Positions 3,137 to 64,000 of a DNA stretch of 64,000 nucleotides are shown here, piece by piece. The translations under genes were made by a program, and so were the position numbers. The stretch spans positions 55,417 to 119,416 of IMG/VR virus record IMGVR_UViG_3300028591_000121; one strand, given 5' to 3'. Position 1 is the first letter of the stretch. The number at the start of each line of letters is the position of its first letter. The stretch is from a virus. Its lineage: Duplodnaviria > Caudoviricetes. Below the pieces are notes generated by a model. It was not told the origin of the DNA, ran no database searches, and was given only the letters and a program-made list of their open reading frames with translations.

Positions 3137-3154
3137 AGAAAAGGAGATTCAGTT

Positions 3155-3955: not shown

Positions 3956-3978
3956 TTAATTTAGAACGGAGTATTGAA

Positions 3979-11785: not shown

Positions 11786-11806
11786 TAACCGTTAGAGGAG
11801 AATGTA

Positions 11807-27120: not shown

Positions 27121-27318
27121 ATGTTGATCTTCGAAGAGAAATACGTCTACGGCGAAACGCCAACCAGGCAGCAATTAGAAGATGCGCTTCAGGTTCTGAA
27201 GTGCGAGAGGTACGCACGATGGCAGTCAATGATGACTGATCAGGAACGAGAAGAGATTGAACAAGCTCATTACTTGTGCATGTATTTGCTTAGAAAAACT
27301 CTGACAGAATATTCCTGA
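27121..27318 (+). CDS. Small hypothetical protein (paralog of 47562..47747)
   Basis: FEEKYVYGETPTRQQLEDALQVLKCER versus FEEKYIYGETPSRKQIEDALEVLKCER. Confidence 0.75.
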   Translation: MLIFEEKYVYGETPTRQQLEDALQVLKCERYARWQSMMTDQEREEIEQAHYLCMYLLRKTLTEYS

Positions 27319-27333
27319 ACGGATAGATAAATA

Positions 27334-27441
27334 TATGCGGTGTTGGAAGAGGTAAACAAAAACAGAAACAGTTGAGATGGCGGGTTACCGACGGGGACTT
27401 GAGATTCCGTCTCCTATCAGGTGCAAATCCTGATCCGCATA
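27334..27441 (+). ncRNA. tRNA-like RNA A (acceptor, D and T arms; no canonical anticodon arm)
   Basis: TATGCGG/CCGCATA stem; TGTTGGAAGAGGTAAACAA D-like arm; GAGATGG/CCGTCTC stem; ATCAGG-TGCAAAT-CCTGAT T arm. Confidence 0.7.
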
Positions 27442-27546
27442 AGAATAACGGCTGCTTTCTTCGGAGAGCAGGAAGGATGAAAACCACTTCCGTCGAGGTA
27501 TCGGCAGCAGCAAACACTCATGCGTAGGTAAAGGCAAATACCAAAT

Positions 27547-27693
27547 TGTGTGGTGACGGAAGAGGTAAACGGGCTAGAGGGAGATAGCCACGAAAGCGGA
27601 GTTAACGTTACCGCTTGAGAATAAGGACTAACGTCGTGCGACCCTACATCTGCGAAAAGGCTATCCTGTTAGGTGCAAATCCTAACCCACACA
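27547..27693 (+). ncRNA. tRNA-like RNA B
   Basis: TGTGTGG/CCACACA stem; TGACGGAAGAGGTAAACG; GATAGCC/GGCTATC stem; GTTAGG-TGCAAAT-CCTAAC. Confidence 0.7.
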
Positions 27694-28872: not shown

Positions 28873-29202
28873 AGCCATATTATTTAAGAAAATTAAGGAG
28901 AGAGAAAGATGGACTGGGGATCATTTCTTTTAGGATACTGTTCTGGGGTCATTATAACTTGGGCGGTTTGTTTCCTTGTATTCATTTCCGTACTCAAGGA
29001 CGAGATGAAAAACGAAAGAAGGAACAAGAGATGAGCGAGTTCAAAGAAGGCTTCCAGGCTTATCTGCTGAATCAGCCGTTCTTAACATATAAGTCAAGAG
29101 AGTGGAAGGCTGGGTTTCTCAACGCTGCTTATACGTGGGTACATGAGTATCAGAGAACGAGCAACGGAGAGCCTGAGACAGAGAAAGAAGAGCAGTAATA
29201 AA

Positions 29203-29311
29203 TGACACGTTGCCTCATTGGTAACAGGGCATCCCGGGACAGGGGTGGCAGACCGTTCGAGTCGGTATTGGGCGAGGCAGACCAATGCAAGTTCGATTCT
29301 TGTACGTGTCG
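29203..29311 (+). ncRNA. tRNA-like RNA E (non-canonical, second internal T-loop)
   Basis: GACACG/CGTGTC stem; TGCAAG-TTCGATT-CTTGTA T arm; internal ACCG-TTCGAGT-CGGT. Confidence 0.55.
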
Positions 29312-29726: not shown

Positions 29727-30020
29727 ATGAATCAGAAGAAAGAGAAGCGGACAGTCTCCGCTGTATAGAATGTCAGGCTGTCGATGGATTTCTACAGTGA
29801 GGAAGCAAATGAGCAAACAATCTGCACTTATATTCAACAGCTTCTTGAAGAGTGTGCGGATAACGTCAAAGTATCTTTAGTAGAGGATGCCACAAGTACA
29901 ACGAAGGGGGAATCGCCTTGTTTGTGGAGTGCAGAGAATGTATACACTATGCCTCATGTCCAGCCGGTTACAGTCACGGTAATGCTGCCTGTCTCACTCT
30001 GGCAGAGAAGCGAAAACTAA
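29727..30020 (+). CDS. Hypothetical protein; TAG at 29766
   Basis: The ATGA overlap with the previous gene only works if translation starts at 29727 and reads through TAG. Confidence 0.6.
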
Positions 30021-30055
30021 GAAGAAAAATATCGTTTGGGGATGTGTTTAAGTAT

Positions 30056-30619
30056 ATGGGAACAAGACATTAGATTGCTGTCCAGTATAAAGGACGTTAT
30101 TGGGTTGCCCAGTATGGGCAGTGGGATGGATATCCCAGTGGACAGGGCATTGCAGTACTTGAGTTTCTGCGGGATCAGATGGATGAGAAGATCTTTCTCA
30201 ACAACTTGGTCAATGTCCGTGAGATGAACGACAACGAATACCGCACGTTGTTCTCGTTTACCGGGGACAGAGTCAACGCTTTAAGAGAAATCTTCCCTGA
30301 GTTTGATCGTGATACGAGCGCAGATATTCTTCCGATTATTCAGCGGGGCAACTGCTTCCGTATTTCTAATCAGCTTAGGTTTGCTGCCGACTCCCTGTTC
30401 TGTGAGTGGGCATATGTGATCGATTTTGATAAGCGGACATTTGAAGTCTATCAGGGATTTAATAAAGAACCGCTGACTCCAGAGGATAGGTTTTATGAAC
30501 TGCGGGAACATGAAGAACTCCCCTACCACGGCGTTAAGCTTGCCAAGTCTTGGAGTCTTGACGAGTTGCCGACGAATGAAGAGTTCATTTCCGCACTTGA
30601 AAAAGAGGATGAAGAATGA
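30056..30619 (+). CDS. Conserved phage protein (MGTRHL...QYGQWDGYP type); TAG at 30071
   Basis: MGTRH*IAVQYKGRYWVAQYGQWDGYPSGQG...SLFCEWAYVIDFD. Confidence 0.85.
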
Positions 30620-35099: not shown

Positions 35100-35309
35100 A
35101 TGATGTGGCTAGTGAAAATTACACGAAAGAATTCCGATCAAGTCCAGTTCGGGAATCTTCCCAACTGCCCCTACTCTGAAGCTAAGAAGTTTATCGAGCA
35201 AGCCAGGCAGAGCGATAGCGATATCGCTTCCGCAGATTAGTAGACTCCTGCTGTAGATGGGTCTGGTCAGTGGATTGAGATAGTTGAAATAGAAGGAGTA
35301 GTTATATGA
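35100..35309 (+). CDS. Hypothetical protein with tandem TAG-TAG (35238, 35241)
   Basis: RBS GAGG; read-through ends in a TGA forming an ATGA overlap with the 35306 gene. Confidence 0.6.
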
Positions 35310-36585: not shown

Positions 36586-37674
36586 ATGAAAAAGCGTCAG
36601 CGTTTCCACGTAACACTTATCAACGGAGAACAAGTCTGGATCACAGGCTACACAATCGACGAAGTATTTGATACCGCATTCAGGAAGTACGGGTATCTGT
36701 ATCAGGATGTAATGGAGAAGCCCGCATCAAACGCCCCTACAATCGGCGAGTACATTAATAAGTGGCTCAATGAGTACCGCAGTAAGAAGATTGCGGGTAA
36801 GCGTTATATCAGTCTGAGTTCTATTATCAAGTCTCATATCGAACCCGCAATTGGAGATATGCACTTGGATGAGATGGACTCAGATAAGGCAATGTGGTTT
36901 ATTAATTCGTTAGAGGAATTGGAGAGTATTCAGTTCCTTGTCCTGTGGATTATGAAGAACTTGTATGAGTACGCAATTGAGGATGGATATCTTAACAAGA
37001 ATCCATTCAAGAGTTCCAAGATCTCCGTCACAAACCCGAATGCCAAGAGACGCTCGATGACTACAGAAGAAGTAGAAGATATGCTTAACAGAATTCCAGA
37101 TCTTCCGCTGATGAAACAGTTGATAGTAGTTATCCCGCTATATACAGGCATGCGACTAGGAGAAGTCTTTGCTCTGGACTGGGAAGATATCGACTTTGAC
37201 AAGAAGCTGATCCATGTAACGAAGACTCTGAGTCTTGACAAGGATAACACCCCGATTATTAAAGCTCCGAAGACAGATGCGGGTATCAGGTATGTTCCTC
37301 TCCTGCCAGAACTTGAGGAGTATCTTCTGAAAGCTAGGCAACCGAGCGGAAGAGTGATCGTTTCCAAGAAGGGAAAACCTTACAATTCTGGAGGAGCTAC
37401 GGTCGAAGGGAACAGGACATTAAAGAAGCTCAACGTTCCGAAGGACATTACTTACCACTGCCTTCGTCATACCTTTGCTACGATGATGGCAACACGTATT
37501 AATGCCAAGACTCTCCAGACAATTCTTGGTCATTCAGACTTCATGATCACGATGAATACCTACGTGGATACCACAAAAGAGCAGACGGAAGACGTTGCAA
37601 AATTATGCGATAAACTCTATCAGAAAGTTGACACAAAATTGACAGAGAAAAGTTCTGAAAGCGTTGCGGTGTAA
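36586..37674 (+). CDS. int: Tyrosine integrase
   Basis: YTGMRLGE, PKTDAGIR, HCLRHTFAT, LGHSD, TMNTY. Confidence 0.93.
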   Translation: MKKRQRFHVTLINGEQVWITGYTIDEVFDTAFRKYGYLYQDVMEKPASNAPTIGEYINKWLNEYRSKKIAGKRYISLSSIIKSHIEPAIGDMHLDEMDSDKAMWFINSLEELESIQFLVLWIMKNLYEYAIEDGYLNKNPFKSSKISVTNPNAKRRSMTTEEVEDMLNRIPDLPLMKQLIVVIPLYTGMRLGEVFALDWEDIDFDKKLIHVTKTLSLDKDNTPIIKAPKTDAGIRYVPLLPELEEYLLKARQPSGRVIVSKKGKPYNSGGATVEGNRTLKKLNVPKDITYHCLRHTFATMMATRINAKTLQTILGHSDFMITMNTYVDTTKEQTEDVAKLCDKLYQKVDTKLTEKSSESVAV

Positions 37675-37945
37675 GGAGTCCAGGCATAATTAATTAATAT
37701 GCAATTGACATTTCGATGTCAACAACGAGATAAAAACGAGCCAGATCCCTTGTAAATAAACAAAGGTCTAAAACAGTGAATCTTCAATACACGAAAAGAA
37801 CTTGAATAATTATGCATAATATGTGAATAAAACATAAGCAATAACCAGCATAAGTGAATCCATATAGGATAATTTCCACCAGCTCAAGAATCTTTAATTT
37901 ATTTTTCAAGTGTCTACGCTTGGTCTGCTGAAAGTTATTCTAGTG

Positions 37946-37954
37946 TGATATAAT
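37946..37954 (+). promoter_or_regulatory. Extended -10 promoter element for the R-M operon
   Basis: TGaTATAAT about 30 nt upstream of ATG 37986. Confidence 0.55.
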
Positions 37955-37985
37955 AGTTGCGAAACCGCAAGGAAGGAAACTAAGG

Positions 37986-39275
37986 ATGAGTGAGATAAGA
38001 TTTATTGACTTGTTCGCTGGCATCGGGGGAATCCGTAAAGGCCTGGAACTGGCCTGTGAAGAGAGAGGGATCAAGACTCAGTGTGTATTCACGAGCGAGA
38101 TCAAGCCCCATGCGATAGAGATTCTGAAACAGAACCACCCCGACGAAGAAATCCACGGAGATATTACTAAGATTTCTACGGATGAGATTCCGCAGTTTGA
38201 TATTCTGCTTGGCGGGTTTCCGTGTCAGGCTTTCTCCGCTGCGGGTAAGAGACTTGGGTTCTACGATACCAGAGGTACTCTGTTCTTTGAAGTCGAACGT
38301 ATTCTTGCTGAGAAGAAACCGTTCGGGTTTATCCTTGAGAACGTAGAGGGTCTCGTCAACCACGACAAAGAGAATCCAAAAGACAAGATCGGACGTACAC
38401 TGACAATTATTCTGGATCGACTCGTGAGTCTGGGATACAAGGTGAACTGGAAAGTTCTCAACGCCAAGGACTTTGGAGTTCCGCAGGACAGAAAGCGTAT
38501 CTATATTATCGGAACTCTTAAAGAGACTCCAGATATGAGTCGGTTTCCGCATAAAGAAAAGTATGTACGGGATATTCTTGAACAGGGATTAGAGACGGAG
38601 ACTAGTCCGTTTATTAATAAACTCCTCGCCCACTATAAACTCGAAGAACTTCCCGGAATGTCGATTAAAGACAAGCGTGGCGGAGATAATAATATCCACA
38701 GTTGGGATATCGGACTGAAGGGCGAAATCACGGAACGCCAGAGAACTCTCCTGAACATGATGATGACGGAGAGACGGAAGAAGAAGTGGGCAGAGATTTA
38801 CGGGATCGACTGGATGGACGGTATGCCACTGACTCTGGGCATGATCAGGACTTTCTTTGATGCGGATGACTTGGAAGAGATGTTGGAAGATCTGGCTTCC
38901 AAGAAGTATGTCAGGAAGGAACACCCTAAAAAGAAAGTGGGACTCTTGCGAGTCCCAGATGAAGAGTTGCCTGTTGGCTATAATATTGTTGCGGGTAAGA
39001 TGAGCTTTCAGGTGAGCAAAGTACTTGATCCTGATTCTATCTCTCCTACTCTGGTCGCTATGGATATGGAGCATCTGTATGTGAGAGACGGAGACGGGAT
39101 TAGAAAGCTGAGTCTCAGAGAAGGACTCCGCCTGTTCGGATACCCAGAGGATTACAAGTTTGATATCGATAGAAACCTTGGATATGATCTGCTTGGGAAC
39201 ACAGTCGTTGTTCCTGTAATCAAAGCTGTTGCGGGTAAAGTACTTGACATTTATCAAGGAGATAAATAGAAATGA
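37986..39275 (+). CDS. Type II C5-cytosine methyltransferase (M.NlaIV/M.NgoBV-like); ends at TAG 39267-39269 or TGA 39273-39275
   Basis: DLFAGIGG, GFPCQ, ENV, PQDRKR, SIKDKRGG..NIHSWDI, LGNTV. Confidence 0.9.
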
Positions 39276-40009
39276 TCAGGATGTCTGCACAGGAAGTATA
39301 TGAAGCCCTGTTGAGTGAGGAACGGATTACAGAGATCGAAGGTCAGATAAGATTCTATCTGGGGACAGTAGATATAGTTGTCCGGCAGAGAGATGTAGTT
39401 GGCAATATAATTCAGGAGTGGCTACAGGGTTGGTTTGACACGCATGAGGTTTTATACTGTACGAATGACAACTCTCAGATGCCCCCGGATTTCTTTCTGA
39501 ATCCGCAGAACAGAAAGACTGATATGTTGGAAGTCAAGGCGTTTAATATAGAAGCCTCTCCGGGATTTGATATTGCGGACTTCAATATGTATCAGCAGGA
39601 GATCGTAGAGAAACCGTGGATGTTATATGTGGATTACCTGATCTTCGGGTATGAGATGATGGCAGACGGAACTGTTTTGATCAGAGACTTATGGCTGAAG
39701 AAAGTCTGGGAGATTACCAGACGAATGAAGGAGTGGCCTATTAATCTCCAGATCAAAGACAGAGTCGTACATAAGATTCGCCCAGGGGTTTTCTATAAGC
39801 GGATCGGATATCCTCCCTTCCAATGCCTTGAAGACTTTATCAGCGCAATCGAGGAAACCGTATATAAGAATCCAAAGACTCACGATATAGCAGGACAGTG
39901 GCTCAACCAATTCCTTGGAAATTATGAGTACCATTACGGGGTTCGTCTGAATGTCCCAAGATGGAGAGACATAGCGGATACCTACCAAGCCTTACCAAGG
40001 GGTATATAA
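39272..40009 (+). CDS. NgoBV/NlaIV-family type II restriction endonuclease
   Basis: DVVGNIIQEWL, QMPPDFFL, LEVKAFN, SPGFDIADF, YLIFGY, WLKKVWEI; adjacent to the cognate MTase. Confidence 0.8.
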   Translation: MIRMSAQEVYEALLSEERITEIEGQIRFYLGTVDIVVRQRDVVGNIIQEWLQGWFDTHEVLYCTNDNSQMPPDFFLNPQNRKTDMLEVKAFNIEASPGFDIADFNMYQQEIVEKPWMLYVDYLIFGYEMMADGTVLIRDLWLKKVWEITRRMKEWPINLQIKDRVVHKIRPGVFYKRIGYPPFQCLEDFISAIEETVYKNPKTHDIAGQWLNQFLGNYEYHYGVRLNVPRWRDIADTYQALPRGI

Positions 40010-40011: not shown

Positions 40012-40056
40012 AAAAAAATGGGGAGTAGACCAATTAAGATCTACTCCCCTAATTTT
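40012..40056. terminator. Bidirectional terminator between the convergent arms
   Basis: GGGGAGTAGA/TCTACTCCCC hairpin flanked by A and T tracts. Confidence 0.85.
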
Positions 40057-40363
40057 ATTCTGCGGGTTTAATACCGGCTGCGATCTGATCGATATCGAGT
40101 TGTTTCCATGCGGCTTGTAATGCGTTCATGACTTCCGCCGTGTTCACATTAAAACCTTTATTCTTCATAATCTCCAAAGCCTCCTTGAGCTTATCGCTTC
40201 CATGCCCACGCCCGTAAATAGCTTCGGCTGCCTACACTGCGTACTTAGCGACAGCCATAAGGTTGTTTTCCTTCAGCCACGGGACAACATAACGCCGTAA
40301 AAGTTCCTCAAATAAAACTGCCTACAATGTAATTAGTGCAACTAACACAGGTGTCCAATTCAT
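40055..40363 (-). CDS. Holin (LL-H-like); two TAGs (40322, 40232)
   Basis: MNWTPVLVALITL*AVLF...VVPWLK...AKYAV*AAEAIYGRGHGSDKL. Missing from the standard-code ORF track. Confidence 0.85.
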
Positions 40364-40470
40364 ATTACTCACTCCCGTATACTTTATTTAAAAATTCCTA
40401 GTCATCCGCAGAAGCAACGTCCTCTGTATGAGAGAGGATCTCTGACGAGATACCTCTCCGATTCTTTAAT

Positions 40471-40764
40471 TTAGCCTACGCTCTCATCTATAATCTGATT
40501 ATCTACAATTGACTTCGCTTCCTGATATGCATTCTTAATCTTAGATGTATTCTCTACTCCTGCCTTGACACTGTAGTTTGTAATGGCTACTCCAGTCTAG
40601 GTTGTAACCGCTTGCATAATCGAAACGATTGCATCCGTCTGGTACTGGAATAAACCCGCAAAAGAAATCAAGACAAGAGAGAGCTATAAAAGTATAAACA
40701 GACCAAGAGTAACTCCCCCGACCTATTTCTTAGAGTATTCAACTTTCCTTATTGCCACTTCCAC
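40471..40764 (-). CDS. Two-TM lysis-cassette membrane protein; three TAGs (40723, 40684, 40597)
   Basis: EYSKK*VGGVTLGLFILL*LSLVLISF...Y..KAGVEN..KI; GTG start is approximate. Confidence 0.75.
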
Positions 40765-41200
40765 TCACGCCCCCTTTAGGCGGTTGATCTGGCAGATTCA
40801 AGATATCTTCCTCGTTGTGTGTTGCGAGATGGTTGCACCCACGACTTCGATAGGTTTCGTACATGCGGATAACCCTCTGCTTTTCTACTGGCGCACACCA
40901 ACCTCGTGCCATATATGTCTGATGAAGAGTTTCAAGCCTGTCACAAAGAAGATCTGCGTTGTTCTCATCCACTCGTGACAGAGTCTTCTTCAGTTCTTTA
41001 ATCTCTTTCCGTTGCTCTTCATCTTGTTTTCTGGACTCTTCGATAACCTTGTCAAGCTTTTCATCCATTTCCTTGATCGGCTTCGACACCCACAGTTTAA
41101 TCGCTGCGACTGCTCCGCCTACCGCAGTAATGAATAATAAAAAACTTCTTACGATCTCAGCCCATTGGATTGCCCCCTCAATAGTTCCAGTCATTTCCAT
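40739..41200 (-). CDS. Holin-like single-TM protein of the lysis cassette
   Basis: N-terminal TM, coiled coil, then Y..RGW...YETYRSRGCNH pattern. Confidence 0.7.
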   Translation of the reverse strand: MEMTGTIEGAIQWAEIVRSFLLFITAVGGAVAAIKLWVSKPIKEMDEKLDKVIEESRKQDEEQRKEIKELKKTLSRVDENNADLLCDRLETLHQTYMARGWCAPVEKQRVIRMYETYRSRGCNHLATHNEEDILNLPDQPPKGGVSGSGNKES

Positions 41201-41222
41201 CGGTATCCTCTCCTCTCAGATG

Positions 41223-42029
41223 TTAAACACCCGCCTACTCTAAAGCATCCTTGAGGGCTTTCGCAGTCTTAACCTCAAGGAATATCGTATACATTCCATT
41301 CTCCGAGCCTTCCACATCTGTGAGGAACTTGCTCATCATCCAACCACTTTTACCGTTGTATATAATCTTTGACCAGTCATTAGACACTCCAGTAACTGTG
41401 ACAGTTTCTCCAACGGGAACTCTCATAACCAGATTCCCATTAATAGAATCTCTCATATTTACAGAACTGCCGTTCTCAGCAAAGACTTTCATTTCCTGCT
41501 CCATAACGGTCACCTCTATCTTTTTATTTTGCTCAGGGGTATTGCCGTAATCTATATACTTGCAAAGCCCGACATGAGTCCAGGCATTCTTGAGCGTGGA
41601 CGAAGCTACACACCTTCTTGATGCGGAAGCGTGAACTACGCCGTTCCCGATCCCTGTATAAACACCGACGTGAGAAGCATTGCCCAGTCCATCCTTGTAA
41701 CCCCTGGCTACTTCCCCGCCATCAAACTCTACGATAAACAGCCAAGCTCCTTTAGGGATCTTCCCGAATTCTTTCTTACACTCCGCAATCGTCCCTACCC
41801 AATCGCATGCGTTTCGGAACATATCGTTGCTGCCTTTCCAGTTCTTCTTGACTCCAAACTGGCGAAGCTAGTATTCCATCAAGCCCTGACAGTCCATTCC
41901 GTTCTAATCAGAACTGGCATTTACATAAGGGATGTCCGTATAGATCACGTTATTCTCTTCATCAATCTTTCTTTCCATCAGAAGTTTATCTGCTGCTTCC
42001 GCATAATCAATATTACTGATCTTTCCCAT
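41223..42029 (-). CDS. Endolysin (NlpC/P60-like peptidase + SH3-like domain); three TAGs (41904, 41868, 41235)
   Basis: IPYV...GMDCQG (catalytic Cys, upstream of the standard-code ORF), SHVGVY, VVHAS, and SH3b-like VNMR...WSKIIYNGKSGWMMSKFL. Confidence 0.88.
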
Positions 42030-43231: not shown

Positions 43232-45853
43232 TTAGATCTGAGTAGACATAGAGTTGATCAGAGAATTAGAGAAGGTCTGATAGTTGCTTGCACCGTGTTG
43301 CATGTTCCGCATAAAGATCGGTTGAATGCCGTTGCTGATGGCAAGTTGGGCAAGGAGCTTCATGTTCTCACAATACTGGGCACTTGTCAGCTTGTTGTTA
43401 TAGGCATTGCCGTCAGGGCCAGCAACAGTATCAGGGACAAGGCTGGAATTTTTTGAGTTCGTGTCATTGATGACAAAGTCGTGGATGCTGACCGCAGGAT
43501 GGTACTTGATAACGTTCTCATAGAACCAAGCCAAAGCCCACGCACTGGTCTGACTTCCCTTGGAGTAGTTCGTGTAATCAACCGTTACAACACTGTTTTC
43601 ACACTGCAACCGTTTGAACTCTGTGGCACTCGCCGCATGTCGCACAGTTCCCCAAGAGTCAAATTCCTGTGCAATAACCGCTCCCTTGGGGAACAGTTGA
43701 GTGTCAGGATATTCAAGTTCGTTTACCCACCAAGTGACCCGACCTATACCAAAGCCATACTTGCCACCATTGACAGGCCCCCAGCTATTGCTGTAGATCT
43801 CAAGCTTGGCAGTCCCAGCTCCCTCGTAGTCACAGATGATCCTGCGGCAGATGGAGGTTGTCAGGATTTCATGGAGCTTCTCAACTCCGTCAATCGTAAC
43901 AACAACATGCACTTCCATACCTTCGGGAAGTTCAATCTGGTTGCACACAGGGAAGATGAACGCTTCAAGATAACCGCTGTTGCCCTGAAGGTTCTGCTCC
44001 CAGAAAACGCCAGTCTTCCCAGTCCAAGGAGAATAACTTGCATATGCGATATACAAGCATGCATTTGCTACGGTTCTCTGAAGCCAGCCCTTATTCAAGT
44101 TCTCGTTAACATAACGATACTGATCAGTCTGATAGCCAGAGCCAATCTTCTGCCAAGGGAATACGGTAGGATCTGTCACATCAACTTCCGTGCCGGAGAA
44201 CCTGGCAACGTATTTGCCAACCTCGCAATGTTTCGGGTTCTGGGCAAAGATATGCTGGGCATATGCTTTGTAACCGTTTGTCGTAAGATGCAGTCCAACG
44301 GAAGTAGAGGTAGAGTCCGTCAGCATCGTGGACAGAACACCGTTCGTGATTTCTTCGGTAAGCTTCGGGAACACGATCAGCTTCGTGGCATCGTTCGGAT
44401 CTGCCTTGAAGTTGACAGTGTGGAAATGAATCCCATCAGCAGACAGAACACCACCGACCCATCCAAAGTCGGAAGTGAGCTGGGCAAGGTTCACAGTAGA
44501 AGAGAGGTCTGCATCTGTGTCGCAATGAACCGCCGCAAACGAGGAAACAGTCAAGCTGTCAGAATCCGCACTACCGCTGACAGACATCGTGATATCTGCT
44601 TTAGTCCATGCATCCGGGATATACATACTACACCAGCCAAAGCTCGCCATAATTTCAGGCATCAGGGGCTTTATCGGATGAGAAAGCATGTACTTCGGTT
44701 TGACGGTCACAGTAGACGAGCGGAGACCAACCTTCCCGGCCCCGTCAACAGCAAGGACTTTGCCAGCGTTCTCAACGCCTTGATCAATGTCAACCTTCTT
44801 CTCAAACTCAATTTCCAGAGTCCCTTTGACTTCAGCAGAGATGACGATCGGGTTCATCTTTGAGATTCTTGAAGTCATTACACAGAACCTGAAATACCCG
44901 GCAGTTGCAGGAATATCTATAGGAGTTGCCTTTGTATCACGGAGAACATTGAAGTGACTTACATAGCTGCCAGACGGCGTATAGAAGAAAGCTTTCGCAG
45001 TGGGATCAATAGTCCCATTGTAGCTGATGTTGAGTGTCTTGGCGTTTGTTAATGTAATCGGGTCGGACACAGAGTAGGAAGAACCGTTTATAATGTTCCC
45101 GATCGTTGCCGCAGTCGTTGAGATGGTCTTGCCCTCTGTGAACGTAATGTCGGCAATGGCGATCGTCTGTTCGGAAGTAGACCCGAATGCTTCTTCGATG
45201 GTAGATGACAGCGGGTCGATCTGGTCGACGATATCACCAAGATCAGTGTCAAGCTTTGCTCTGCTGATAGAACCATCCGCAACCGCAATTACTTCAGGAT
45301 GAGCATTAATATAACTCCCAACAGCACTCTCAACCGCCGTGCCATCCAGAGCATCCTGCCAACTAGCTCCGCCCTGTCCATCCGTCATCAGTACCTGTCC
45401 ATTCGTGCCATCCGTAGCAGGCTTCGTGAGCTTCGTTGCAAGAGCGTCACCTGCTGCCTTGGCATCCGCTGCTTCGCCCTGTTGCGTAAGCGTATCGTCG
45501 ATCTCAACGCTTGATCCACCGCTACCCTGAACTGTCTTCCATGTACGATGTCCGTTGCCATCAGTAGTAAGAACCTGACCGTTCTTTCCTTCCGTGGTCG
45601 GCTCATTTATCTTAGTCCCAAGAGTCGTATTAATCCCGTTAACCGTACTAGAGAGTCCGCTGACAGAAGTCTGGAGCGCACTCACGTCGCTTTCGATCTG
45701 CGTAGTATCAGGCATGTCATGCTGGATCTGCTGCACTGTAGTACGAAGTTGCCCAATGGCTGATTCGTTGGCAGCGATCTGTGTATCTTGTTCAACCGTA
45801 GTTTGAGCCTAAATCACATCGCCATCTATTACGTCATGAATCTGATAAGCCAT
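43232..45853 (-). CDS. Tail fibre / receptor-binding protein 1 (SGNH-like C-terminus); TAG at 45809
   Basis: Starts MAYQIH like the paralog at 49832; GQVLTTDGNG repeats, ADAKA.GD, HPE..VADGSI; C-terminal FDSW...INDT. Confidence 0.78.
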
Positions 45854-46025: not shown

Positions 46026-47039
46026 TTATACAACAGCTTTTGCATGGCCAGAGCGCACATCGTCCTGAGCCGTTTCCACGTAAATCATAGTCGTTGCTAC
46101 ATTCTCATGACCGAGCAACTTCTGTACCTCTTCGATAGGCATTCCGTGTCTCACAGCCTGAGTGGCAGTAGTATGCCGAAGAATATGCGGTGTCACTGCT
46201 TTTGTGATACCAGCACGCTCCCGAATATCCCGCACAATGGATTCGATACCCGCCTTGCCTAACTGTCCATGAGGTCGACGATCGCTAACGAACAGATATT
46301 CAGAGTTTCCCTTGCGAACTTTCAGATACTCCTGCAACGTTACATGCGCTTTGGCGTTGAGATAGCTAGTCCTATGCTTTCTCCCCTTGCCGAACAGATG
46401 AACCTCATCACTCTGGAAGTTAACATCGGACAGCTTTACAATGCACATTTCACTCACGCGGCATCCAGTACTATACATGAATTCGATCATGGCTTTTTCT
46501 CTGATCGTCTGGCATGCCTTTCGGATATACTCCAGTTCGATCTGCGACAGACTTTGACGCTGTTTCTTTTCGCACTTGATCGGCTTGATTGTGATTGCCG
46601 GATCCCTATCCAGGTATCCCTCAGCTGCACACCAATGAAACAGCGAACAGACTTCGCTTCGGAGCTTATCCAAGGAAGCACTACATATTCCACGATCCTG
46701 CTGATATTGGTACAGGAAAACACGGATATCCTGCGGTTCGATCTTGTCAAGCGGTTTCTTAACGTACCTACAGAAAGCTTTAAGATGGGTCAGCCGATTA
46801 TTCAAACTTTCCCTTGACTGTCCCTCAACCGTCTTAGTTGCGATGTACAATTTGATCAGTTCTGGCACTTCGCCAACAGGCACAGAGAGCGCAAGCTCAG
46901 CCCGATTGATCTCGTATGGAGCTGCACATACGTCCATGCACGAAATAATCTCCTGCATCTGTTCTACTGTGATTCCTGGCATTTTCTCTGTGACCATGGC
47001 CACGAAAGAATTCCTAAACATCTCATATTCGTTCGACAT
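46026..47039 (-). CDS. XerD-like tyrosine recombinase within the fibre locus
   Basis: STGCRVSE, GKGRKHR, TPHILRHTTAT, LLGHENVATTMIY. Confidence 0.92.
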   Translation of the reverse strand: MSNEYEMFRNSFVAMVTEKMPGITVEQMQEIISCMDVCAAPYEINRAELALSVPVGEVPELIKLYIATKTVEGQSRESLNNRLTHLKAFCRYVKKPLDKIEPQDIRVFLYQYQQDRGICSASLDKLRSEVCSLFHWCAAEGYLDRDPAITIKPIKCEKKQRQSLSQIELEYIRKACQTIREKAMIEFMYSTGCRVSEMCIVKLSDVNFQSDEVHLFGKGRKHRTSYLNAKAHVTLQEYLKVRKGNSEYLFVSDRRPHGQLGKAGIESIVRDIRERAGITKAVTPHILRHTTATQAVRHGMPIEEVQKLLGHENVATTMIYVETAQDDVRSGHAKAVV

Positions 47040-47948: not shown

Positions 47949-49832
47949 TCATGTAAGGTGTGCAACATAACTTGAATACATCACATCTGCAATCTGCATA
48001 TATCCTGCATTCTGCGGATGCACAGACTCATTCGGAATATTGATTGTAGCATCTGTCAATCTAGGATTCACAGGAGTTGAAACATTGCCAAAATCATATT
48101 CTCTGTCCATACATACGGAAAGCGGAACCACAAAAACGTTTGTATAGTTTTTCTGGGCAATTGCCGACTCAAGAGCGTTCTGAAGTCCCATGATCTTTAA
48201 ATCAGAATCAAATGCCCACCCGGATGCGGCTATGAATCCTTGCCCACCGCTTGAATAGTATCCGTTCTGGTTGCTTCTGTAGATAGTATTACAAACGAAT
48301 ATCGGCATATTCGGATACTCGGAACGGATAGCATCAATCAAATCAGTGATAAATCCGGCAGACTCTTCGGCAGATGAACCGCCAAAAATATCATTTGTGC
48401 CAAGGAACAATTGCACAGCATCTGGAGTACCGACAGTAGCACCCTGTGTATTGATGTAGTATGCAAGCGAAAACTTGTTGTTCGTTGCATCCCAGAACGG
48501 ATTTACAGTACCTGAAATACCGGACGCACCTTGATAATTATCATCAAACGTATAGTTGAATTGATCAGTGTATCCTAATGCTGACAACCCGCTTCTACCT
48601 TCATGACGGATCGTGCTATCAGACCTGCCTCTTGTGCCTATAAATTTTATTTTTGAATTTGATAGCGTCTGGACTTCCGACAACCACGCTTTCCCATTCG
48701 TCAAACTATCTCCAATAGGGATTACATTTACAGTATTGGCTATCGAGTTGTTGACAACACGAACGGCACTCGTCCCATACCATACCATATTCATATCATC
48801 ATCAAATATCTTCAATACCAATGTTCTCTCTACTGCTGAGGATCCTGTGATAGAGTATTTTCGTTCATATTGTACCCCAAGTTCACACTCATATCGAAGG
48901 TGATATTTTTTCGCTTCAAGGCATACCAAATCATTGTACAATTCTACCGTTCTGCCAACACCAACACAAATCTCATGTGGGAGATAAACATGAAGTGCTT
49001 TTATTGGTAATGCGGATGCTTTTACCTTCTCCACGTTATACGGCTCAAAATATGGTTCATAATCACGCTTCTCAGTCCCATAGACGATGGCAGAATTATT
49101 ATTGACGGGATTCACTGACAAATAAGTAGTTGACGCAGATACAATCAAATACTTAACGCCAGCAGGGATTGTATATTCAGTTTTATTAGTAACACAAGCC
49201 GAAGTAATATAGTTTTTATCGGCATCATACGCCATTATAAAGCGCATTGTGCCAAATGTTCTTGTAGGTGATTGCGCTTCGGGATTCCCATACTGTAATG
49301 TTATTGTTTTCCCCGACTCGACTTCAAAATATCCCGTGTTATTATAAGACGAAGACTCATTATACCCGTTTGTCCAATAATAGCCGGATGTTATTGGGCC
49401 ACTAATTAGATTTGTGGACGCTATCTTTACGCTCTCTGCAATTTCTTCTATATCATCCTGCATGCCGTCAATCTCGTCAGAAAGTTGAGTAACAGCATTC
49501 ACTTTCTGCGCCACGGAAGATGCAAGTTTCTGTTCAGTAATCGACCCATCCGCCACGGTTGTAGTAGCTTCCGGGTGATCGGTAAGCCAGTCCGATACCG
49601 CCTCACCGATAACGGCAGGATCAGCAGCCGCAATCGTTTTCCATGTACGTCCACCGTTGCCGTCCGTAGTAAGTACTTGCCCATTAGTACCATCGCTTTT
49701 AGGCTCTGCTATTTTACCATTCGAGAGAGCCTCAATATTTTCTTCGTTTAATTTAATCTGGGTATCTTGCTCGATTGTAGTTTGAGCTTTAATTGTGTCA
49801 CCCTTTTTAACTTGGTGAATTTGATAAGCCAT
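47949..49832 (-). CDS. Tail fibre / receptor-binding protein 2 with SGNH/GDSL hydrolase domain
   Basis: MAYQIH N-terminus; IGDSLT, HEGRSG, LGTND, SVHPQNAGY. Confidence 0.82.
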   Translation of the reverse strand: MAYQIHQVKKGDTIKAQTTIEQDTQIKLNEENIEALSNGKIAEPKSDGTNGQVLTTDGNGGRTWKTIAAADPAVIGEAVSDWLTDHPEATTTVADGSITEQKLASSVAQKVNAVTQLSDEIDGMQDDIEEIAESVKIASTNLISGPITSGYYWTNGYNESSSYNNTGYFEVESGKTITLQYGNPEAQSPTRTFGTMRFIMAYDADKNYITSACVTNKTEYTIPAGVKYLIVSASTTYLSVNPVNNNSAIVYGTEKRDYEPYFEPYNVEKVKASALPIKALHVYLPHEICVGVGRTVELYNDLVCLEAKKYHLRYECELGVQYERKYSITGSSAVERTLVLKIFDDDMNMVWYGTSAVRVVNNSIANTVNVIPIGDSLTNGKAWLSEVQTLSNSKIKFIGTRGRSDSTIRHEGRSGLSALGYTDQFNYTFDDNYQGASGISGTVNPFWDATNNKFSLAYYINTQGATVGTPDAVQLFLGTNDIFGGSSAEESAGFITDLIDAIRSEYPNMPIFVCNTIYRSNQNGYYSSGGQGFIAASGWAFDSDLKIMGLQNALESAIAQKNYTNVFVVPLSVCMDREYDFGNVSTPVNPRLTDATINIPNESVHPQNAGYMQIADVMYSSYVAHLT

Positions 49833-50518: not shown

Positions 50519-52330
50519 TCAAGTAAGAACGCTTTGAACTGTATTAATAATAAATGTTTTTAAATCGATTATATATTCCAAGTTAAGAATTCCATTGCCT
50601 GTAATAGTTAAAGCACCAGAATCCCCTGTGGGAAACTTGCCAACAATCTCTATTGTCGATTCGGATTCTTTAGTGAGAGGTATAACGAAATAAACATTCT
50701 TATTCCCTAAAGCAGAAGTCCATGCATTTAATAACTTATCTGATTTAATCCAAATATAACCACTCTCAGGCATAATACTTATATTATCTGGAATAGAAAT
50801 ATTCGAATAAACATTAGAACTAAAGCCACCGCCTTTTAATTCAGTAAGCCGACAGCCAATATATCCGTCATTTCTTAACTCCCACGGCATTTGATTAGCA
50901 GGATAATCAATTCTTAAATTCTTACGCTTAACTTCGCCTGTAGCGAAATCAATTTTATCTCCCTCATAAAGAACAGGGATCTTGGCTTTTGTGCCTACCC
51001 ATCTTGTGTTCCCACTAGAGTCCTCAATTTTTACTGCATAAAATTGTAACGGATCTTCTGGTTTGAACGACGAAGATCTAGAATATGTATATCCTTCTGA
51101 CGTTTCCTGAATTGTATCGTAACCAAGAAGAGAAGTTACAGCTTGCGGATAATATATATTAGGAGAAGTTTCTCCCCCAACGTAACTCTCAATTTCCGTA
51201 AAATCATTTTTGCTTATCATCAACTTCCCATTCCTTTGAACAAAAGCATTTCTGGTATCAGAAGTAATAAAAATTGCGGTTAAATTTTCATTTGCGGTTA
51301 TTATTACTTTACTCTCAGTCACGTAATAACTTGTAATAGCAGTCACAATTTCATCGTGTTCATTCAATCCTCTTATAGAGATGGACGAACCGCCTTTTCT
51401 TCTGACATATAATTTTGTTCCTGCTGCTATGTTCACTTCAGAGCCATAATAAAGTGTGTTATGTATCGTCAGTCGATTATTAATGTCGATAATATTATTC
51501 CCCGGAAATGTTTTTTGAGATGTCTCGCCGGCTTCATATAAAGTGTTAACTGGATTTGTTACAGTTTTATCAAATACAATTCCTGTTAAAACAGTTCCGT
51601 TTTCTTCGTCTGTTACGATTCCTGCCTTAGATTCTTTTATCTCGTTAACAATAGGAATATAGCCTTCAGCGTCTGGGAGATATTTATTAATGTCTTCGAT
51701 AGCCTGGGTGTTCTCTTGAATAGCTTTTGTATTTTCATTTGTCCTGTTCAGAAGTGTATCTGATTTACTGTCTAAACTTTCTAAGCCTTGTGACAAATAA
51801 TCTGTCGCAGTTTCGAGTTCTGAAATCTATGTTGAGTTGTTCCCTATACGAGAATCCAACTGGTCTGCCGTTTCTGCTAACTCTTTTACAGCATCAACAT
51901 TTTCATTAATTGCAGAAACAATATCCGACTTCGTGTCGGTCGTTAATTCAGTAAGATCACCGAACTTTATGTCAGTCGCTCTGGATTCGCTTTCAATAGC
52001 TTCCGCAAGACTTTGTGTAGCTTCCTCACTTGCGGAAACCCGAAGTTCCTATGTTTCAAGCTGCCCATTGGTTTCTTCGATTTCATTTTCGAATTCAGTT
52101 GCCTTTTGAGAAAGTTCTCTTACGCTAATAGGATTCGACCCACCAGAATCAGCTACTAAATCTCCAGAGAAGTTCCCACTTAACTCGCTTGGTTGAACTT
52201 CGCCTTTGCTGTTTATGATCTAAACTTTCCCAACGTTTTCTGTTCCTTGTGCTATATTGAGTTTCCCCGCAAGAAGACTCCCTATCTTCTCGCAGAGTTT
52301 TTCAACGCCTTCTGAATTAAGAAATTTCAT
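50519..52330 (-). CDS. Tail fibre-like structural protein; three TAGs (52220, 52049, 51827)
   Basis: One frame from ATG 52330; GDLTELTTDTKSDIVSAINE coiled-coil motif; YVGG.TSPN..YPQ. Confidence 0.75.
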
Positions 52331-52350
52331 CCAACCACCCTTTCTTTGAA

Positions 52351-54300
52351 TTATATATCCGTAGTAGCTTCTTGCGCTGTTGCAACACGTAACCACATAT
52401 TAACAGCAAAATATGGCGGTAAATTCCAACCCGTTTCAGTAGCTCCGTGGTTGTGAGGCTGACCAATAGCGGTCCCTGTACGGACAGTCATATTACTTGC
52501 ACTTTGGATAACACCGTCAGATCTGGATCTATTATTTCTCACATCAGCAGAACCGCTTCCATCGCCGTTAACAGCAACAGCGGCTCTAGTACCACTACCA
52601 CTATAGCTTGTATTCCACCAGTCCAACATACCATGATAATGTTGCGGGATCTCATTGATAGCCAAGGTATGGTTTTGAGTTGCATGTGAGTGAGCATCTC
52701 CACCAGCTTTAGTTCCCACTATTGCATTCCATCCGCCAGTAATTGAACCTATACTGTTATCATCGTTTGCATTCGGTGCTCCGGCTGCAATGAGATATCT
52801 GCCACTGATACGTCTCCAATATGTACCGGGGAACAATGTAGCCGGACTGGTATTATCAATTGAAATGTATATACTGCCGATAGGATGAATCAGATCAATA
52901 ATCTCCTGCCCATGTGTGTACAGATTCCACGACGGGTTCATATAAACCTGATTCTGTCCATTGGAAGCCAGAGGATATGATCCGAATCCAAAGGAGTTCA
53001 AAGTCTTATCCCACCGCATGAATACGTAAGCTGTATCAATCATGGAATCGACTGTAGTTGTTCCGCCTAATGTATCCGTAACAGAGAACCGCACACTGTA
53101 TCTTGTGCCTTGGTCAAGGGCTGTTCCAGCGGTCGTTGATCCATACGAGTAAACGGTATTCGGCTGTGCTATTCCTGTGTGCATTGGCTGGTAATCTCCA
53201 TTTTGATAGATGGAAATTGTTGCTCCCGTGATGGTGTTGCCGTCCGCAGTATTGAATGCAGAATAGTTCATCCTTGCTCCACCCGTTACACTTGTGGGAT
53301 CTGGAGCTAATGTAGTTGGATCACAGCGGAAGCAAGAATAATCCGTGATCGTCGGAAGATTGTAATCCGCTACATATAAAGTTACTGATGCGGAAGAACT
53401 CTATCCTCTGGAATCTGTAACCGTAAGTGTAAATGTTTTTGTTCCCGCTGTTGCAAATATACTGGTTACGATTGCTCCTTGTGCTGCGTAAGTCGCATCT
53501 CCGCTATGAAGAATACTGTCTCCAGTCAGAGTCCATGAAGCCTAAGTAGCTCCTTGTTGCGGAGTAATTCCACTCCAACTAACTACTGCCGTTGACTTAG
53601 TCTTCCAAGGTTTATTGTTATACCAGTTCGTCAGACTTGGTTCTCCAACAGTAAGGCTCGTCGAACCAATAACGGGTTGATATGCGGGTGTATCGGGAAT
53701 CGATACAGTGCATGTTGTAGAAGATTGTCCGTAATAAGTTCCGTCTTTATAAGTCTGACAAACAATCGATAAAATATTTGAACGGGCGTTCGTCGGCATA
53801 TAAGGCAACCAAGTCGCTACATCGATTGTTGCGGAAGCCGTTCCTGCTCCGACACTTGTCGTTATCCAACCCGTATCATGAGAAGCTCCAGAAGGACTTA
53901 CCATCGTCCACTTGATCTTGTGTACAAGACCAGTCTAACCTTGCGAGTTGCCAATTGTAACAGCACTGAAATCCCCAAGAGTTATATTCCCCGCACTGAT
54001 TGTCGAGGGTCCCTACGCTGATTCATAGTATCCTGTAACCGATATATAGAAAGCACCAGTATTTGCAGATCGGACAGAGTAACTGCCAGAATTGCTTGGG
54101 CTGTTAATTGTATAAGTTGGATGGTTATTAATGTCTGCTATAGGAGTATCACCGTGATACTAATTTCTGGGAGAACCAGAAGCCGCACCATCGATAGTGA
54201 TAACCACACTTGTCATATTGTTTCCGCTTGGAGCAGACCAACTGAATGTCTTAGGGTTAGAACTGACAACCATTCTGTTCCATATACTAAAAGATCCCAT
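52351..54300 (-). CDS. Minor tail/baseplate protein (DUF859-like with fibre-type C-terminus); five TAGs (54160, 54013, 53935, 53542, 53401)
   Basis: One frame, 649 aa; TVTDSRG, HPIGSIYIS...SPATLF, HTLAINEIPQH, NLPPYFAVNMWLRVA. Confidence 0.8.
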
Positions 54301-54319: not shown

Positions 54320-57300
54320 TTACGTTGTCCATGCCCAGTTGATACTTCCGTCAGTATCTTTAGTTGCAATAATCCCGCCAAACTCTAAAGTGTAAAGGAT
54401 CTGAGCATGCGTGATCCAAAGATTGTTCTGCGAGATATATGCCACTTCGTTACCGCTGTCCTTGAATGAGAGTCTGTCGTTTGAAAGAAGAGTTGTCATT
54501 CCAGAGTTATTAGTCCCTTGCTTGCCAAGTTCAAGACCCGCTTCTGTAAATCTAATATAGGTTTTAACCTCTGCATCGTATGCATTTAAAGCATCAGCTG
54601 CGTCATTCCTCGCACTCGTTATTTCTGCCGTAAGAGACCTCGAAGTTTGAGTTAAAGTCGAACTAACAGAATCGATTCGAGTATCCAGATTATCTATTGT
54701 GTTCTCATAATCGAGCCGTTCTCTTACAGTGCTTTCAATTGCATCAGGAGTAATCTTCTGTTCTGCGGAACTGATTCTACTCACAATATCCGAAGCGTTC
54801 ATATTGCACTCAGAATAATCTGTTGCGAAATATCCCTTCTCAATCTTGCACTGTGTAACCATAATCACAACATCTTCTGTCTCATGGGTTCTAGGGCCAG
54901 TACAATAAATAGCCACTTCAACACCCGCAGTCGCTTTGAAGGTGATCTCAAATCTCCGCCAAGTAGAAAGCTAAGTGTTGCCCCAGATCGGAGTGTACTC
55001 ATTAGTACTTATAACACTCAGTGCTTCGTCCGGGCTTGCGTTAGAAGCGTCTGTCTCATATACGTTTACATAGACTTTTGTGGCGTATCTACAGCTTACA
55101 TAACCAGAGAAGGTGTACACTTCATTCGGTGTTAAATCTACACGGTTACTGTAAATACCAACTCTCTGCTCCGCAGTGTGTTCTCCTTGTCTGATAATTA
55201 CACACGTATTTACAGCGGGATCTCTAAACCCGCCGTATGTGTCTGTATCAGTATTGGGTCCGCAAACGCTGAAGTCCGTTGCAGCAACAACTTCCTACTC
55301 ATGAACAGAGTTTTCTTGTGTTCTGTCTCCGTCATTCATAAGAACCCAACCAATCGGATAATTGTGAGTACCATACATCTCGAATCCGCCGTTACGCAGG
55401 AGATTCACACCCGCATACAGATTATCTTCAGGAGCATTCGTGAACCCTGTTGCTGCGTTTCCTCGTTCAAGCTTGGCGTTATAGATCGTCGTTAATCCTC
55501 TGTCTGTTACCCCAGCCGGAACAGCATAGAGATAAAGGTCTATATTCTTCTCATCTACGTCTCCGTTCAGAATCGTAACAGAAGGATCGAGGTACGCTGT
55601 CTTGTAGCTTGTTACATCTACAGTAGCGGAACTGAACTCAGCCATATCCCGCCTGATCTGAAGCAGTGTTTCAAGGGCTGTTGCTTTGGCAATGCCGTCT
55701 GCCTGATCTGTAACAAAAGCTACGATAATTCCGTCCTCATCGTCTTCCAGAATCTTTGCGGTATCCCAAGTCTAAGTACTTCCGCTGACTGCATAGTAGT
55801 CAGGAGAATTAAAATTCTGGACATACGTATTAAGCTCCGCATCTGTATACTACTCATTCCCCGGCGGGGTAATCGCAGTCATCAGAAGCCAGAGAGTCGA
55901 AGTTGCGCTTCCCTCTGTCGCAGTAATACTCTTAACCTTACCGAAGATCGAATAGTACTGGTCTTCGATTGCATCCGTATATCCTGCTTCAGAAGTAAGT
56001 CTTCTGCCCAGAACAACTGGTCTATTCGTTACATCCACATTCCCGTTGACAAGACCCGTCAGGTACGTGTCAAGTTCTGCGGGAGTCTTATTATTTGCAC
56101 CGTTCACAATATTCCACGCAGCGACTTTATCTGTTGCGATCTGATCTGAGGACTGTCTCGCATACTTGGAAAGGAACGTTAGTGTTCTGATCTGTCTTGA
56201 TGTGCCATACGGAATAATATAACCGACGGACTGTCCGCCCTGGGAGAGACACACGTTATACTTCTGTACTCCCGTTGCAGGAATGAAGTCCATCGAGAGA
56301 GTGTACACATGGTCTTCGATTGTCGGTTCAGACAACTCAAAGATCGTAACCTAATCGTCTCTGTTCTTCCGTAGAATACTGGAGTTCAGGATCAGGTTTC
56401 TAGTTCCGTATGTGACTTGATCTTTTACGGACTGAGCAATGTATTCAGGAGTAATCTCAGCAATCGCATCCTTGTTCGCTTTAATACTTCCTTCCATTGT
56501 CTGCCTGTAGGTTTCGATCTTACCAGAGTCTCCGTACATATCCACTGTAAGTCCAGACACTTCACTCTTCAACTCATTAATACTGGGAGTGTAAGGAGTC
56601 GAGGGGCCGTACTCAACTTTAGCGGAATGGTAATAGACAGTAGATGTGTGTTCATGAGTTGAGTTCACGAGAAGAGCTTCCGCATACTCAACGTTATCAG
56701 ACAACGGAGCATTTACTTCGCACCAGTCTTCTTCTCCGGCTGCTACCGTTGTCTCACTCAGGTAGTCTGTATAAGTTCCGTCAAAGTTATGGAGTCGAAG
56801 TCCTACTTTGAAGCTGTCCGTTGTAGGAGCTAAGTGACAGCGGAAACTCAGAGTCTCTGCTCCAGCTTCGTCTGCATCAATCTCAACCGCTCCAAGAACC
56901 AGATCAGTTGCGACATCTGCTTGAGTCAGTGTTGTGGAAGTTCCGGCGAGTAAGTTATCGCCAGAAGATCTTTCCATATCCTGAAGTGCCTGTCCGACCG
57001 CCACATGAATTGATTGGTTTGCGGAAAGATCTAAGCTGTCACCCGCATGGATGTCAAGCTTATCTCCTGTGATACTCCCCGCTTCAATCTATGCTGCGCT
57101 CAGGTATCCAGTCACAATTGCATCAGCGGTAATACCTTTACCACTAGCTGCCGTTCTCCAGTTCCATTCTCCATCTTCAGTCTTACCGTTCGCAATCATC
57201 CACCCATCGCCACTCAGCATCATAGCGGACTGACCATCGGCGGCTTCGAACATAATGTTACCGTTGTCATCTGTATACCAAGAAGACACAGAACTCAGGA

Positions 57301-63600: not shown

Positions 63601-64000
63601 GGATCAAACGTTGCATCAGCAGCCATCGTTTCGTAAGCATCAGACAGAGAATGAATAGCCATTTCTGCGGCTTCGGCTTGTTTAACAATCTCTTCAGTTC
63701 CGCCCTCGTAAGCGTTCATTACAATGGTCTTACCATTCTCGCCGTTATCCGCATTAAAGATATCGTCGATACTGCCTAATCCCTGTAAGTTATCATCTAT
63801 GTATTGCTTGACTTCGTCTTCAGATAATACTTTGCCATTCGGAAGGATCGGAGTTACTGTTAATGTTACTACTTTTCCGTCAGCTAATTCTACGCCTGTA
63901 GAATAAGAGTCAAATGTGGAATAGCTTCCTTCTTCAACATCCCATCCCTTAGCGTTCATGGCTTGCCAAGGAACTTTCTTACGATTAAAAGTAACACCGC
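60639..64000 (-). CDS. Tape measure protein, C-terminal part (runs off the window); TAGs at 63504, 63255, 62856
   Basis: Four same-frame fragments joined by TAG; long coiled coil, Gly/Ser linkers, FDTGG.TG...IHKKERVLTPEQ. Confidence 0.88.

Follow-up and report, generated by a model that had tools for sequence, protein, structure and literature searches.

The 64,000-nucleotide stretch analysed here (the window) covers bases 55417-119416 of IMG/VR record IMGVR_UViG_3300028591_000121, a single viral contig of 119,416 bp, and several of its genes, among them those for lysis and tail proteins, contain in-frame TAG codons that alignments indicate to be read as leucine. The explanation that fits best, and that we consider probable as a whole, is that a siphovirus infecting gut or rumen Clostridia, with a complete circular genome of 119,416 bp of which the window makes up the larger half, uses TAG as a leucine codon, and that selection keeps TAG out of the genes needed before decoding changes. 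The phage would decode TAG with its own leucine-type tRNA(CUA). The host in all likelihood follows the standard code and has release factor 1 (RF1), and TAG would therefore be a stop codon at the onset of infection and in the lysogen. Selection would purge TAG from the early/replication block, three tyrosine recombinases, a restriction-modification (R-M) pair, the antirepressor and an ArdC-like anti-restriction gene, and genes translated after the suppressor has built up would use TAG for part of their leucines. Since the late genes use TAG, virion and lysis proteins could not be completed until the phage changes TAG decoding; judged from the sequence, they would be made only after a phage-driven code switch, presumably set by the timing of tRNA expression.

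With 4904 codons, the tape measure protein (TMP) gene points to a very long tail. It continues in frame from the start of the contig across to its end, and the contig is therefore a circular genome that was cut inside this gene. Two arms were defined by G+C skew and gene calls:

Genome 35.2-95.4 kb, plus strand: early, replication, nucleotide-metabolism and accessory genes
Genome 95.5 kb through the junction to 32.3 kb, minus strand: lysis genes, integrase island, tail, head, packaging and the tRNA-bearing block

Translation with table 11 fragments the late arm, whereas reading through TAG yields long intact genes. The set used below comprises 174 genes of the whole circular genome, called with a codon-usage score in which TAG was neutral and a ribosome-binding-site term, and corrected by hand from Pfam coverage (the RuvC and HNH genes); six short doubtful open reading frames (ORFs) were left out. 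At window 27276-27605, TAG-rich short ORFs (e.g. 27477-27605) scored poorly as coding and were excluded from the set. A nucleotide search with the late half against 50,697 phage records gave no match.

Leucine as the meaning of TAG

The amino acid inserted at TAG was deduced from homologous proteins. In the portal protein, five of the eight TAG columns hold leucine in 93-117 of 120 full-length homologues and a sixth is evenly split between isoleucine and leucine; in the Tal-like tail protein, column 508 is leucine in 116 of 120. In 13 relatives with about 50% identity, translated DNA shows leucine opposite 36 TAG sites in 124 of 216 cases and glutamine in none (0/216), the residues other than leucine being mostly hydrophobic. 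Under an empirical substitution model, leucine reached a log-likelihood of -397 compared with -531 for methionine, the next best residue, a difference of 134 log units. The aligned-residue profile of TAG (52% leucine) is the same as that of TTA, TTG and CTG, and the TAG codons of the relatives in turn align with leucine, isoleucine, methionine or valine of this phage. Within homologous alignments, every in-frame stop codon of the first 16 relative loci was TAG, and later sets of relatives contained a few in-frame TAA or TGA codons, mostly at alignment ends. From these alignments we conclude that TAG is leucine in this phage.

The alignment of TAG columns with glutamine that marks genetic code 15 was not found. 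Glutamine does occur at TAG columns of database homologues, mainly in near-identical relatives (93-98% identity for the endolysin), where it probably stems from code-15 translation by the depositing pipelines. Such pipelines put glutamine where the phage puts leucine, and in this genome 121 sites would be affected.

No tRNA gene was detected in the window by a tRNA scan. The whole genome encodes four, all on the minus strand, including the putative suppressor:

Genome 29149-29224, minus strand, outside the window: tRNA(CUA), 76 nt

This tRNA carries A73, lacks an encoded CCA and has a D stem of 3 bp, with G13/A22, and a variable loop of 7 nt. It is kept in a relative at 98% identity (L004), and tRNA(CUA) genes of 74-92 nt are present in 20 relative loci. 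The two that were inspected, of 85-86 nt (L045 and L046), have a D arm like that of clostridial tRNA-Leu, A73 and CCA. BLAST of the tRNA(CUA) of this phage against five host metagenome-assembled genomes (MAGs) returned only short T-arm and D-arm matches of 14-21 bases. Judged by its D arm, by A73 and by the long-arm forms of relatives, the tRNA(CUA) is probably charged with leucine. Leucyl-tRNA synthetase does not read the anticodon, and leucine charging of a tRNA with a CUA anticodon is therefore possible.

A further tRNA of the same region, the 89-nt tRNA(UAU) at genome 26864-26952 on the minus strand (L002:8864-8952), has a long variable arm, G1-U72 and A73 and is likewise kept in L004. Recoding of ATA by this tRNA was considered and ruled out, as ATA aligns with isoleucine exactly like ATT and ATC. 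Between tRNA(CUA) and the other tRNA genes lies a gene for a DUF2828/DUF7788 protein without TAG (genome 27315-28763, minus strand; L002:9315-10763). A strong terminator separates the tRNA-bearing block from the packaging genes.

Distribution of TAG and the code of the host

In total, 121 in-frame TAG codons were found in 43 of the 174 genes. Expressed per block as TAG/(TAG+Leu), they are distributed as follows:

Early/replication block, genome 35.2-62.6 kb, plus strand: 0/596 in 49 genes
Middle block, beginning directly after dnaE, plus strand: 21/614
Recombinase and R-M block: 1/98
Lysis block, minus strand: 8/54
Integrase island, minus strand: 3/139
Tail block, minus strand: 53/661
Head/packaging block, minus strand: 30/336
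tRNA-bearing block, minus strand: 5/119, all five within one gene

The first-pass annotation, made from the sequence alone, had proposed that TAG is concentrated in lysis and late genes and absent from replication and lysogeny genes. The TAG share is indeed not uniform but follows the functional blocks (chi-square 79.9 over the eight blocks, P = 1.5e-14), and late genes differ strongly from early ones (0/596 in the early block against 91/1051 in lysis, tail and head genes together; Fisher P = 5e-19). The same contrast was observed within the plus strand, between the early and the middle block (0/596 vs 21/614, P = 8e-7), and within the minus strand, between the integrase island and the tail and head genes (3/139 vs 83/997, P = 0.006), so that it is not an effect of strand composition. 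The onset of TAG is abrupt, at the gene right after dnaE, and its share of leucines rises from 3% in the middle block to 8-15% in head, tail and lysis genes. The three tyrosine recombinases together have no TAG in 82 leucine sites (P = 6e-4 if TAG were as frequent as in late genes, 0.02 if it were as frequent as in the genome on average). No difference was detected between the base following TAG and the base following leucine codons (P = 0.12). In the whole genome no more than a few genes could have TAG as their stop, and none of the 49 early genes does, compared with 22% in the host DNA of a contig described below (P = 5e-6).

Relatives of the phage were found in MAGs of gut and rumen Clostridia (Christensenellales-like, Eubacteriales and 'Clostridiales'). 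In five of five MAGs holding relatives, the RF1 gene prfA is intact and above the curated cut-off. One 300-kb contig (G001:C59, hereafter C59) consists of host DNA over its first 195 kb and carries a syntenic relative, at about 45% identity to this phage, from about 205 kb to its end. Its host part contains 154 ORFs of at least 100 amino acids (aa) and is 89% coding under table 11; TAG ends 34 of these 154 ORFs (22%), and reading it through barely alters coding there. As the first-pass annotation had presumed, the host thus most likely uses the standard code with RF1, as far as can be judged from the hosts of relatives. A rival reading, in which TAG is leucine for the host as well or RF1 is missing from it and the bias is a codon preference between gene classes, is hardly credible: besides the intact prfA genes and the use of TAG as a stop in the C59 host, many relatives as well as the phage bring a tRNA(CUA) of their own, and 0/596 in early genes is far below any ordinary codon-preference effect. 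In its favour, two related contigs tolerate TAG in replication genes.

The relative in C59 has in-frame TAG codons in Tal (6), TerL (4), TMP (3) and other genes, and none in DnaE (1055 aligned aa) or the primase-helicase (605 aa). Its identity to this phage is similar for early and late proteins, namely 42% for DnaE, 41% for the primase-helicase, 47% for the portal protein and 51% for TerL. None of the aligned TAG sites of this phage is TAG in the C59 relative, and even relatives with 94-98% identity, which have 46 TAG positions in common, differ at 3 (TAG vs TTG, TTT and TAT). TAG sites therefore turn over, yet DnaE and the primase-helicase are free of TAG in two lineages whose early and late proteins have diverged to about the same degree, which argues for purifying selection and against recent import, as does the avoidance of TAG as a terminator in early genes.

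These data also bear on a mosaic history, in which the TAG-free blocks would be recent arrivals from phages or hosts with the standard code, too young to have gained TAG. Some features of the genome would suit such a history: the G+C content of the integrase island deviates (0.485 at 44-46 kb and 0.369 at 50-52 kb, compared with 0.44 overall), R-M pairs and integrases are typical mobile cargo, and endolysin homologues occur mainly in unrelated small phages. However, the early block is syntenic in C59 and diverged to a similar degree as the late block, 0/596 leucine sites over 49 genes would be hard to obtain by recent transfer of a whole replication module, and a standard-code import would not shun TAG as a terminator. 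We therefore consider a mosaic origin of the pattern very improbable.

The clade shows four states. L083/L157 have no TAG; others (L105/L106 among them) have the suppressor tRNA but only one to three TAG codons; this phage and the C59 relative have TAG in late genes only; and L045 as well as L046 with L123 have TAG in all modules, including DnaE, the primase-helicase and NrdD. In three relatives, tRNA(CUA) lies directly after dnaE:

L044:11007-11092 (G001:C59 291007-291092)
L045:13162-13247
L046:13145-13229

In this phage it is the in-frame TAG codons that start just after dnaE, though its own tRNA(CUA) sits elsewhere. The position of the suppressor was rejected as a predictor of which modules bear TAG, because it occupies the same place after dnaE in L045 and L046, with TAG in early genes, and in C59, with DnaE and the primase-helicase free of TAG.

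Several observations weigh against the explanation given at the outset. The fully recoded relatives indicate that sparing of early genes is common in the clade but not obligatory. In the C59 relative the contrast between early (2/247) and late genes (19/578) is borderline (P = 0.05), and a chimeric assembly of C59 is conceivable; moreover, the evidence for the standard code concerns the hosts of relatives that share about 45-50% protein identity with this phage, and not its own host. The predicted concentration of TAG in lysis genes was borne out only insofar as these are late genes: the lysis block has the highest density of all (8/54), but its excess over the other late genes (83/997) is not significant (odds ratio [OR] 1.9, P = 0.13), and the holin and endolysin homologues of the more distant relatives L170, L171 and C59 have no TAG. 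Likewise, ThyX has three TAG codons, yet its neighbours dUTPase, NrdD and NrdG have none, so that the split is not cleanly functional. Finally, the tRNA(CUA) gene lies in a leftward unit adjoining a divergent control region and could equally be early. A promoter scan found promoter-like sites to be no commoner than in shuffled sequence, and no inference on timing rests on them.

Position of TAG within genes and a TAG-rich regulator

Within genes, TAG is concentrated towards the 5' end. By gene-length quintile the 121 TAG codons are distributed 49/26/24/10/12, compared with 217/232/239/222/212 for the leucine codons of the same genes (Kolmogorov-Smirnov P = 5e-7). This bias persisted when TMP was left out, within TMP alone, in genes of at least 250 aa and when the first 30 codons were skipped. 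Among relatives, 184 unique TAG sites in near-full-length alignments fell into the quintiles as 79/34/32/20/19 (P = 4e-12), to be read with the reservation that N-termini are less conserved and that the relative loci are not phylogenetically independent. The clustering was seen in the TerL, portal and capsid-region families and was absent from DnaE and the primase-helicase of the fully recoded relatives.

All five TAG codons of the tRNA-bearing block fall into one gene:

Genome 29997-30407, minus strand (L002:11997-12407): sigma-like, GerE-type regulator of 136 aa, 5 TAG among 10 leucine sites

The protein hits sigma-factor families in PHROG (E = 3e-8) and, above threshold, GerE in Pfam. Surrounded by genes without TAG, its gene is located 0.8 kb upstream of tRNA(CUA), in the same orientation, and has the highest TAG density in the genome. 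The family is also the most TAG-rich of the clade, with TAG in 13 of 14 loci; among 42 recoded relative loci, 25 TAG in 172 leucine sites were counted, compared with 5% pooled (OR 3.4, P = 1e-6). One virion protein family is enriched in TAG clade-wide as well (threefold).

This arrangement suggests a feed-forward lock, in which the tRNA would permit synthesis of the regulator, the regulator would permit late transcription, and the late messages would need the tRNA again. The block imposed by TAG would then act as a regulatory gate and would not merely be tolerated. Taken further, amber-as-leucine may be an evolved translational timer: the suppressor tRNA would license the TAG-laden sigma-like activator, TAG codons clustered at 5' ends would abort translation of virion and lysis genes at once in cells that have not switched, and late expression would be locked at transcription and translation, the lock also silencing the prophage. 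We regard this extended reading as possible but doubtful.

Alternatively, TAG may be passively tolerated. It would drift in wherever the suppressor is present, purifying selection would remove it only from genes translated before the suppressor, and the layout would be a by-product of timing with no role in control. The rapid turnover of TAG sites fits this alternative, with none common to this phage and the C59 relative and with leucine, isoleucine, cysteine or methionine at the endolysin sites in relatives, as do the missing enrichment in lysis genes and their TAG-free homologues in L170, L171 and C59. Some relatives have the suppressor but almost no TAG and others have TAG in all modules, and the ordinary rare codons ATA and TTA share the early/late asymmetry (among isoleucine codons, ATA accounts for 4% in the early and 22% in the tail block; TTA leans similarly towards late genes). 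However, drift predicts a flat, leucine-like profile along genes, in contrast to the strong 5' clustering in this genome and at the 184 sites of relatives, and the threefold clade-wide enrichment in the sigma-like regulator and one virion protein family also speaks against it. Passive tolerance is therefore rather unlikely in our view. The 5' clustering and the TAG-rich regulator point towards gating, and they offer testable handles by which gating can be separated from tolerance.

Genes of the window and comparison with known systems

The lysis cassette lies on the minus strand and is followed by a hairpin that would terminate the minus-strand late transcription unit:

40020-40049, minus strand: terminator-like hairpin with a 12-bp stem and a T-run, just past the holin gene
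40055-40363, minus strand: holin (Phage_holin_6_1, PF09682), 102 aa, 2 TAG at codons 14 and 44
40471-40764, minus strand: small membrane protein, 97 aa, phrog_37691, 3 TAG
40739-41200, minus strand: protein of unknown function, 153 aa, no TAG in 13 leucine sites
41223-42029, minus strand: endolysin (NlpC/P60 peptidase and SH3_3), 268 aa, 3 TAG at codons 42, 54 and 265

One of the two holin TAG codons falls in the first hydrophobic helix and one TAG of the 97-aa membrane protein within a hydrophobic stretch. In the endolysin, codons 42 and 54 flank the cysteine of the DCQG motif, and its TAG columns hold leucine, isoleucine, cysteine or methionine in relatives at 60-71% identity. A close-relative search with the endolysin found nothing, and an alignment-based search returned mostly unrelated small phages, without TAG.

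The remaining minus-strand genes comprise the TAG-poor integrase island and the tail genes:

43232-45853, minus strand: protein of unknown function in the TAG-poor island, 873 aa, 1 TAG at codon 15, which is possibly upstream of the true start
46026-47039, minus strand: tyrosine integrase, no TAG in 25 leucine sites
47949-49832, minus strand: SGNH/GDSL hydrolase protein, 627 aa, no TAG in 35 leucine sites
50519-54300, minus strand: two tail proteins, of 603 aa with 3 TAG and of 649 aa (52351-54300) with 5 TAG
54320-59281, minus strand: Tal-like tail protein, 1653 aa, 10 TAG
59300-60400, minus strand: Dit, 366 aa, 2 TAG
60639-64000, minus strand, continuing at genome 1-11353: C-terminal part of TMP, 3 TAG here and 30 in the whole gene

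On the plus strand, the window begins with the end of the early/replication block:

1-7179, plus strand: primase-helicase (Toprim and DnaB_C domains), PD-(D/E)XK nuclease, Bro-N/ANT antirepressor and DnaE (1066 aa, 93 leucines), no TAG
7195-8282, plus strand: first TAG-bearing genes, directly after dnaE, namely a RemA-like gene (1 TAG) and ThyX (7605-8282, 3 TAG)
9857-12301, plus strand: NrdD and NrdG, no TAG
14041-14589, plus strand: RuvC-like resolvase, 182 aa, 4 TAG
36586-40009, plus strand: recombinase and R-M group, with a tyrosine recombinase (36586-37674) and an NgoBV-type restriction endonuclease, both without TAG

The Pfam match of the resolvase spans residues 28-171, so that its long, TAG-containing form is real. 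The genes for dUTPase, the ArdC-like protein and an RNA ligase are also free of TAG. The TAG counts that the first-pass annotation had given for holin, membrane protein, endolysin, ThyX, RuvC and Tal were all reproduced, Dit and TMP do contain in-frame TAG, and the primase-helicase, DnaE, NrdD, antirepressor, integrase and second tyrosine recombinase have none, as it had stated. Its claim that both R-M genes lack internal TAG holds for the endonuclease; the C5 DNA methylase, which forms the R-M pair at 37986-40009 with it, has a lone TAG as codon 428 of 429, which is effectively its stop under the standard code.

Two more C5-methylase-like genes without internal TAG are located at 15891-16592 and 16607-17686. 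An N-terminal domain of a dATP/dGTP diphosphohydrolase (PF18909) is encoded at 13703-14038, adjoining RuvC and near ThyX, dUTPase and NrdDG, and may hint at nucleotide-pool editing or DNA modification. A 69-codon ORF (35100-35309) has a tandem TAG-TAG at its codons 47-48 (35238-35243). This pair may encode Leu-Leu, or it may be a genuine double stop after a product of 46 aa.

Stop-codon-recoded gut phages, including crAss-like, Lak, Garnet, Topaz, Jade and Agate phages, were described by Borges et al. (bioRxiv 10.1101/2021.08.26.457843) and read as TAG=Gln or TGA=Trp. These authors proposed recoding as a gate for late and lytic genes and for the choice between lysis and lysogeny, and they found recoding of replication genes to vary. 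The first-pass annotation had likened the layout to the one proposed for TAG=Gln phages, and the idea is indeed the same. Both groups share replication genes that often conform to the standard code, avoidance of the recoded codon in integrases, a phage-encoded suppressor tRNA, prophages in standard-code hosts, here in the case of the C59 relative, and relatives that range from unrecoded to fully recoded. In contrast, TAG is here leucine, probably by way of a suppressor of the tRNA-Leu type, the word 'leucine' being absent from the text of Borges et al., and the significant bias towards lysis genes of their phages was not reproduced. A search of the same text found no mention of the position of recoded codons within genes and no 'sigma'. 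A natural phage with TAG=Leu was not found in a full-text literature search, although absence there is not proof.

A further comparison is offered by phAss-1 (Phassvirus; PMC10607447), a siphovirus-like human gut genome of about 136 kb whose TMP is about 3150 aa long and whose host is predicted to be clostridial. TAG occurs in 41 of its ORFs, among them those for TerL, portal and TMP; the genome also has suppressor tRNA(CUA) genes, and its authors assigned TAG=Gln from TerL alignments and tRNAscan-SE (PMC10607447). Both are large phages of the siphovirus type with TAG in virion genes and a tRNA(CUA), but the assignment is glutamine there and leucine here.

TAG=Leu is known from NCBI tables 16 and 22 (chlorophycean and Scenedesmus mitochondria), and tRNA-Leu amber suppressors of Escherichia coli exist in the laboratory. 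The change is the same, but these cases are whole-organelle codes or laboratory mutants. In this phage, by contrast, a virus carries the altered code, which would be conditional and confined to some of its genes.

Taken together, the idea of the layout is not new, and our results confirm it in a new lineage in which only the leucine meaning differs from the phages of Borges et al. Since a different amino acid is involved, this is a separate case of the late-gene layout and strengthens the view that the layout is selected. The clade spans every stage, with one member apparently integrated into a host that uses the standard code, and is a good system for studying the origin and spread of viral code changes.

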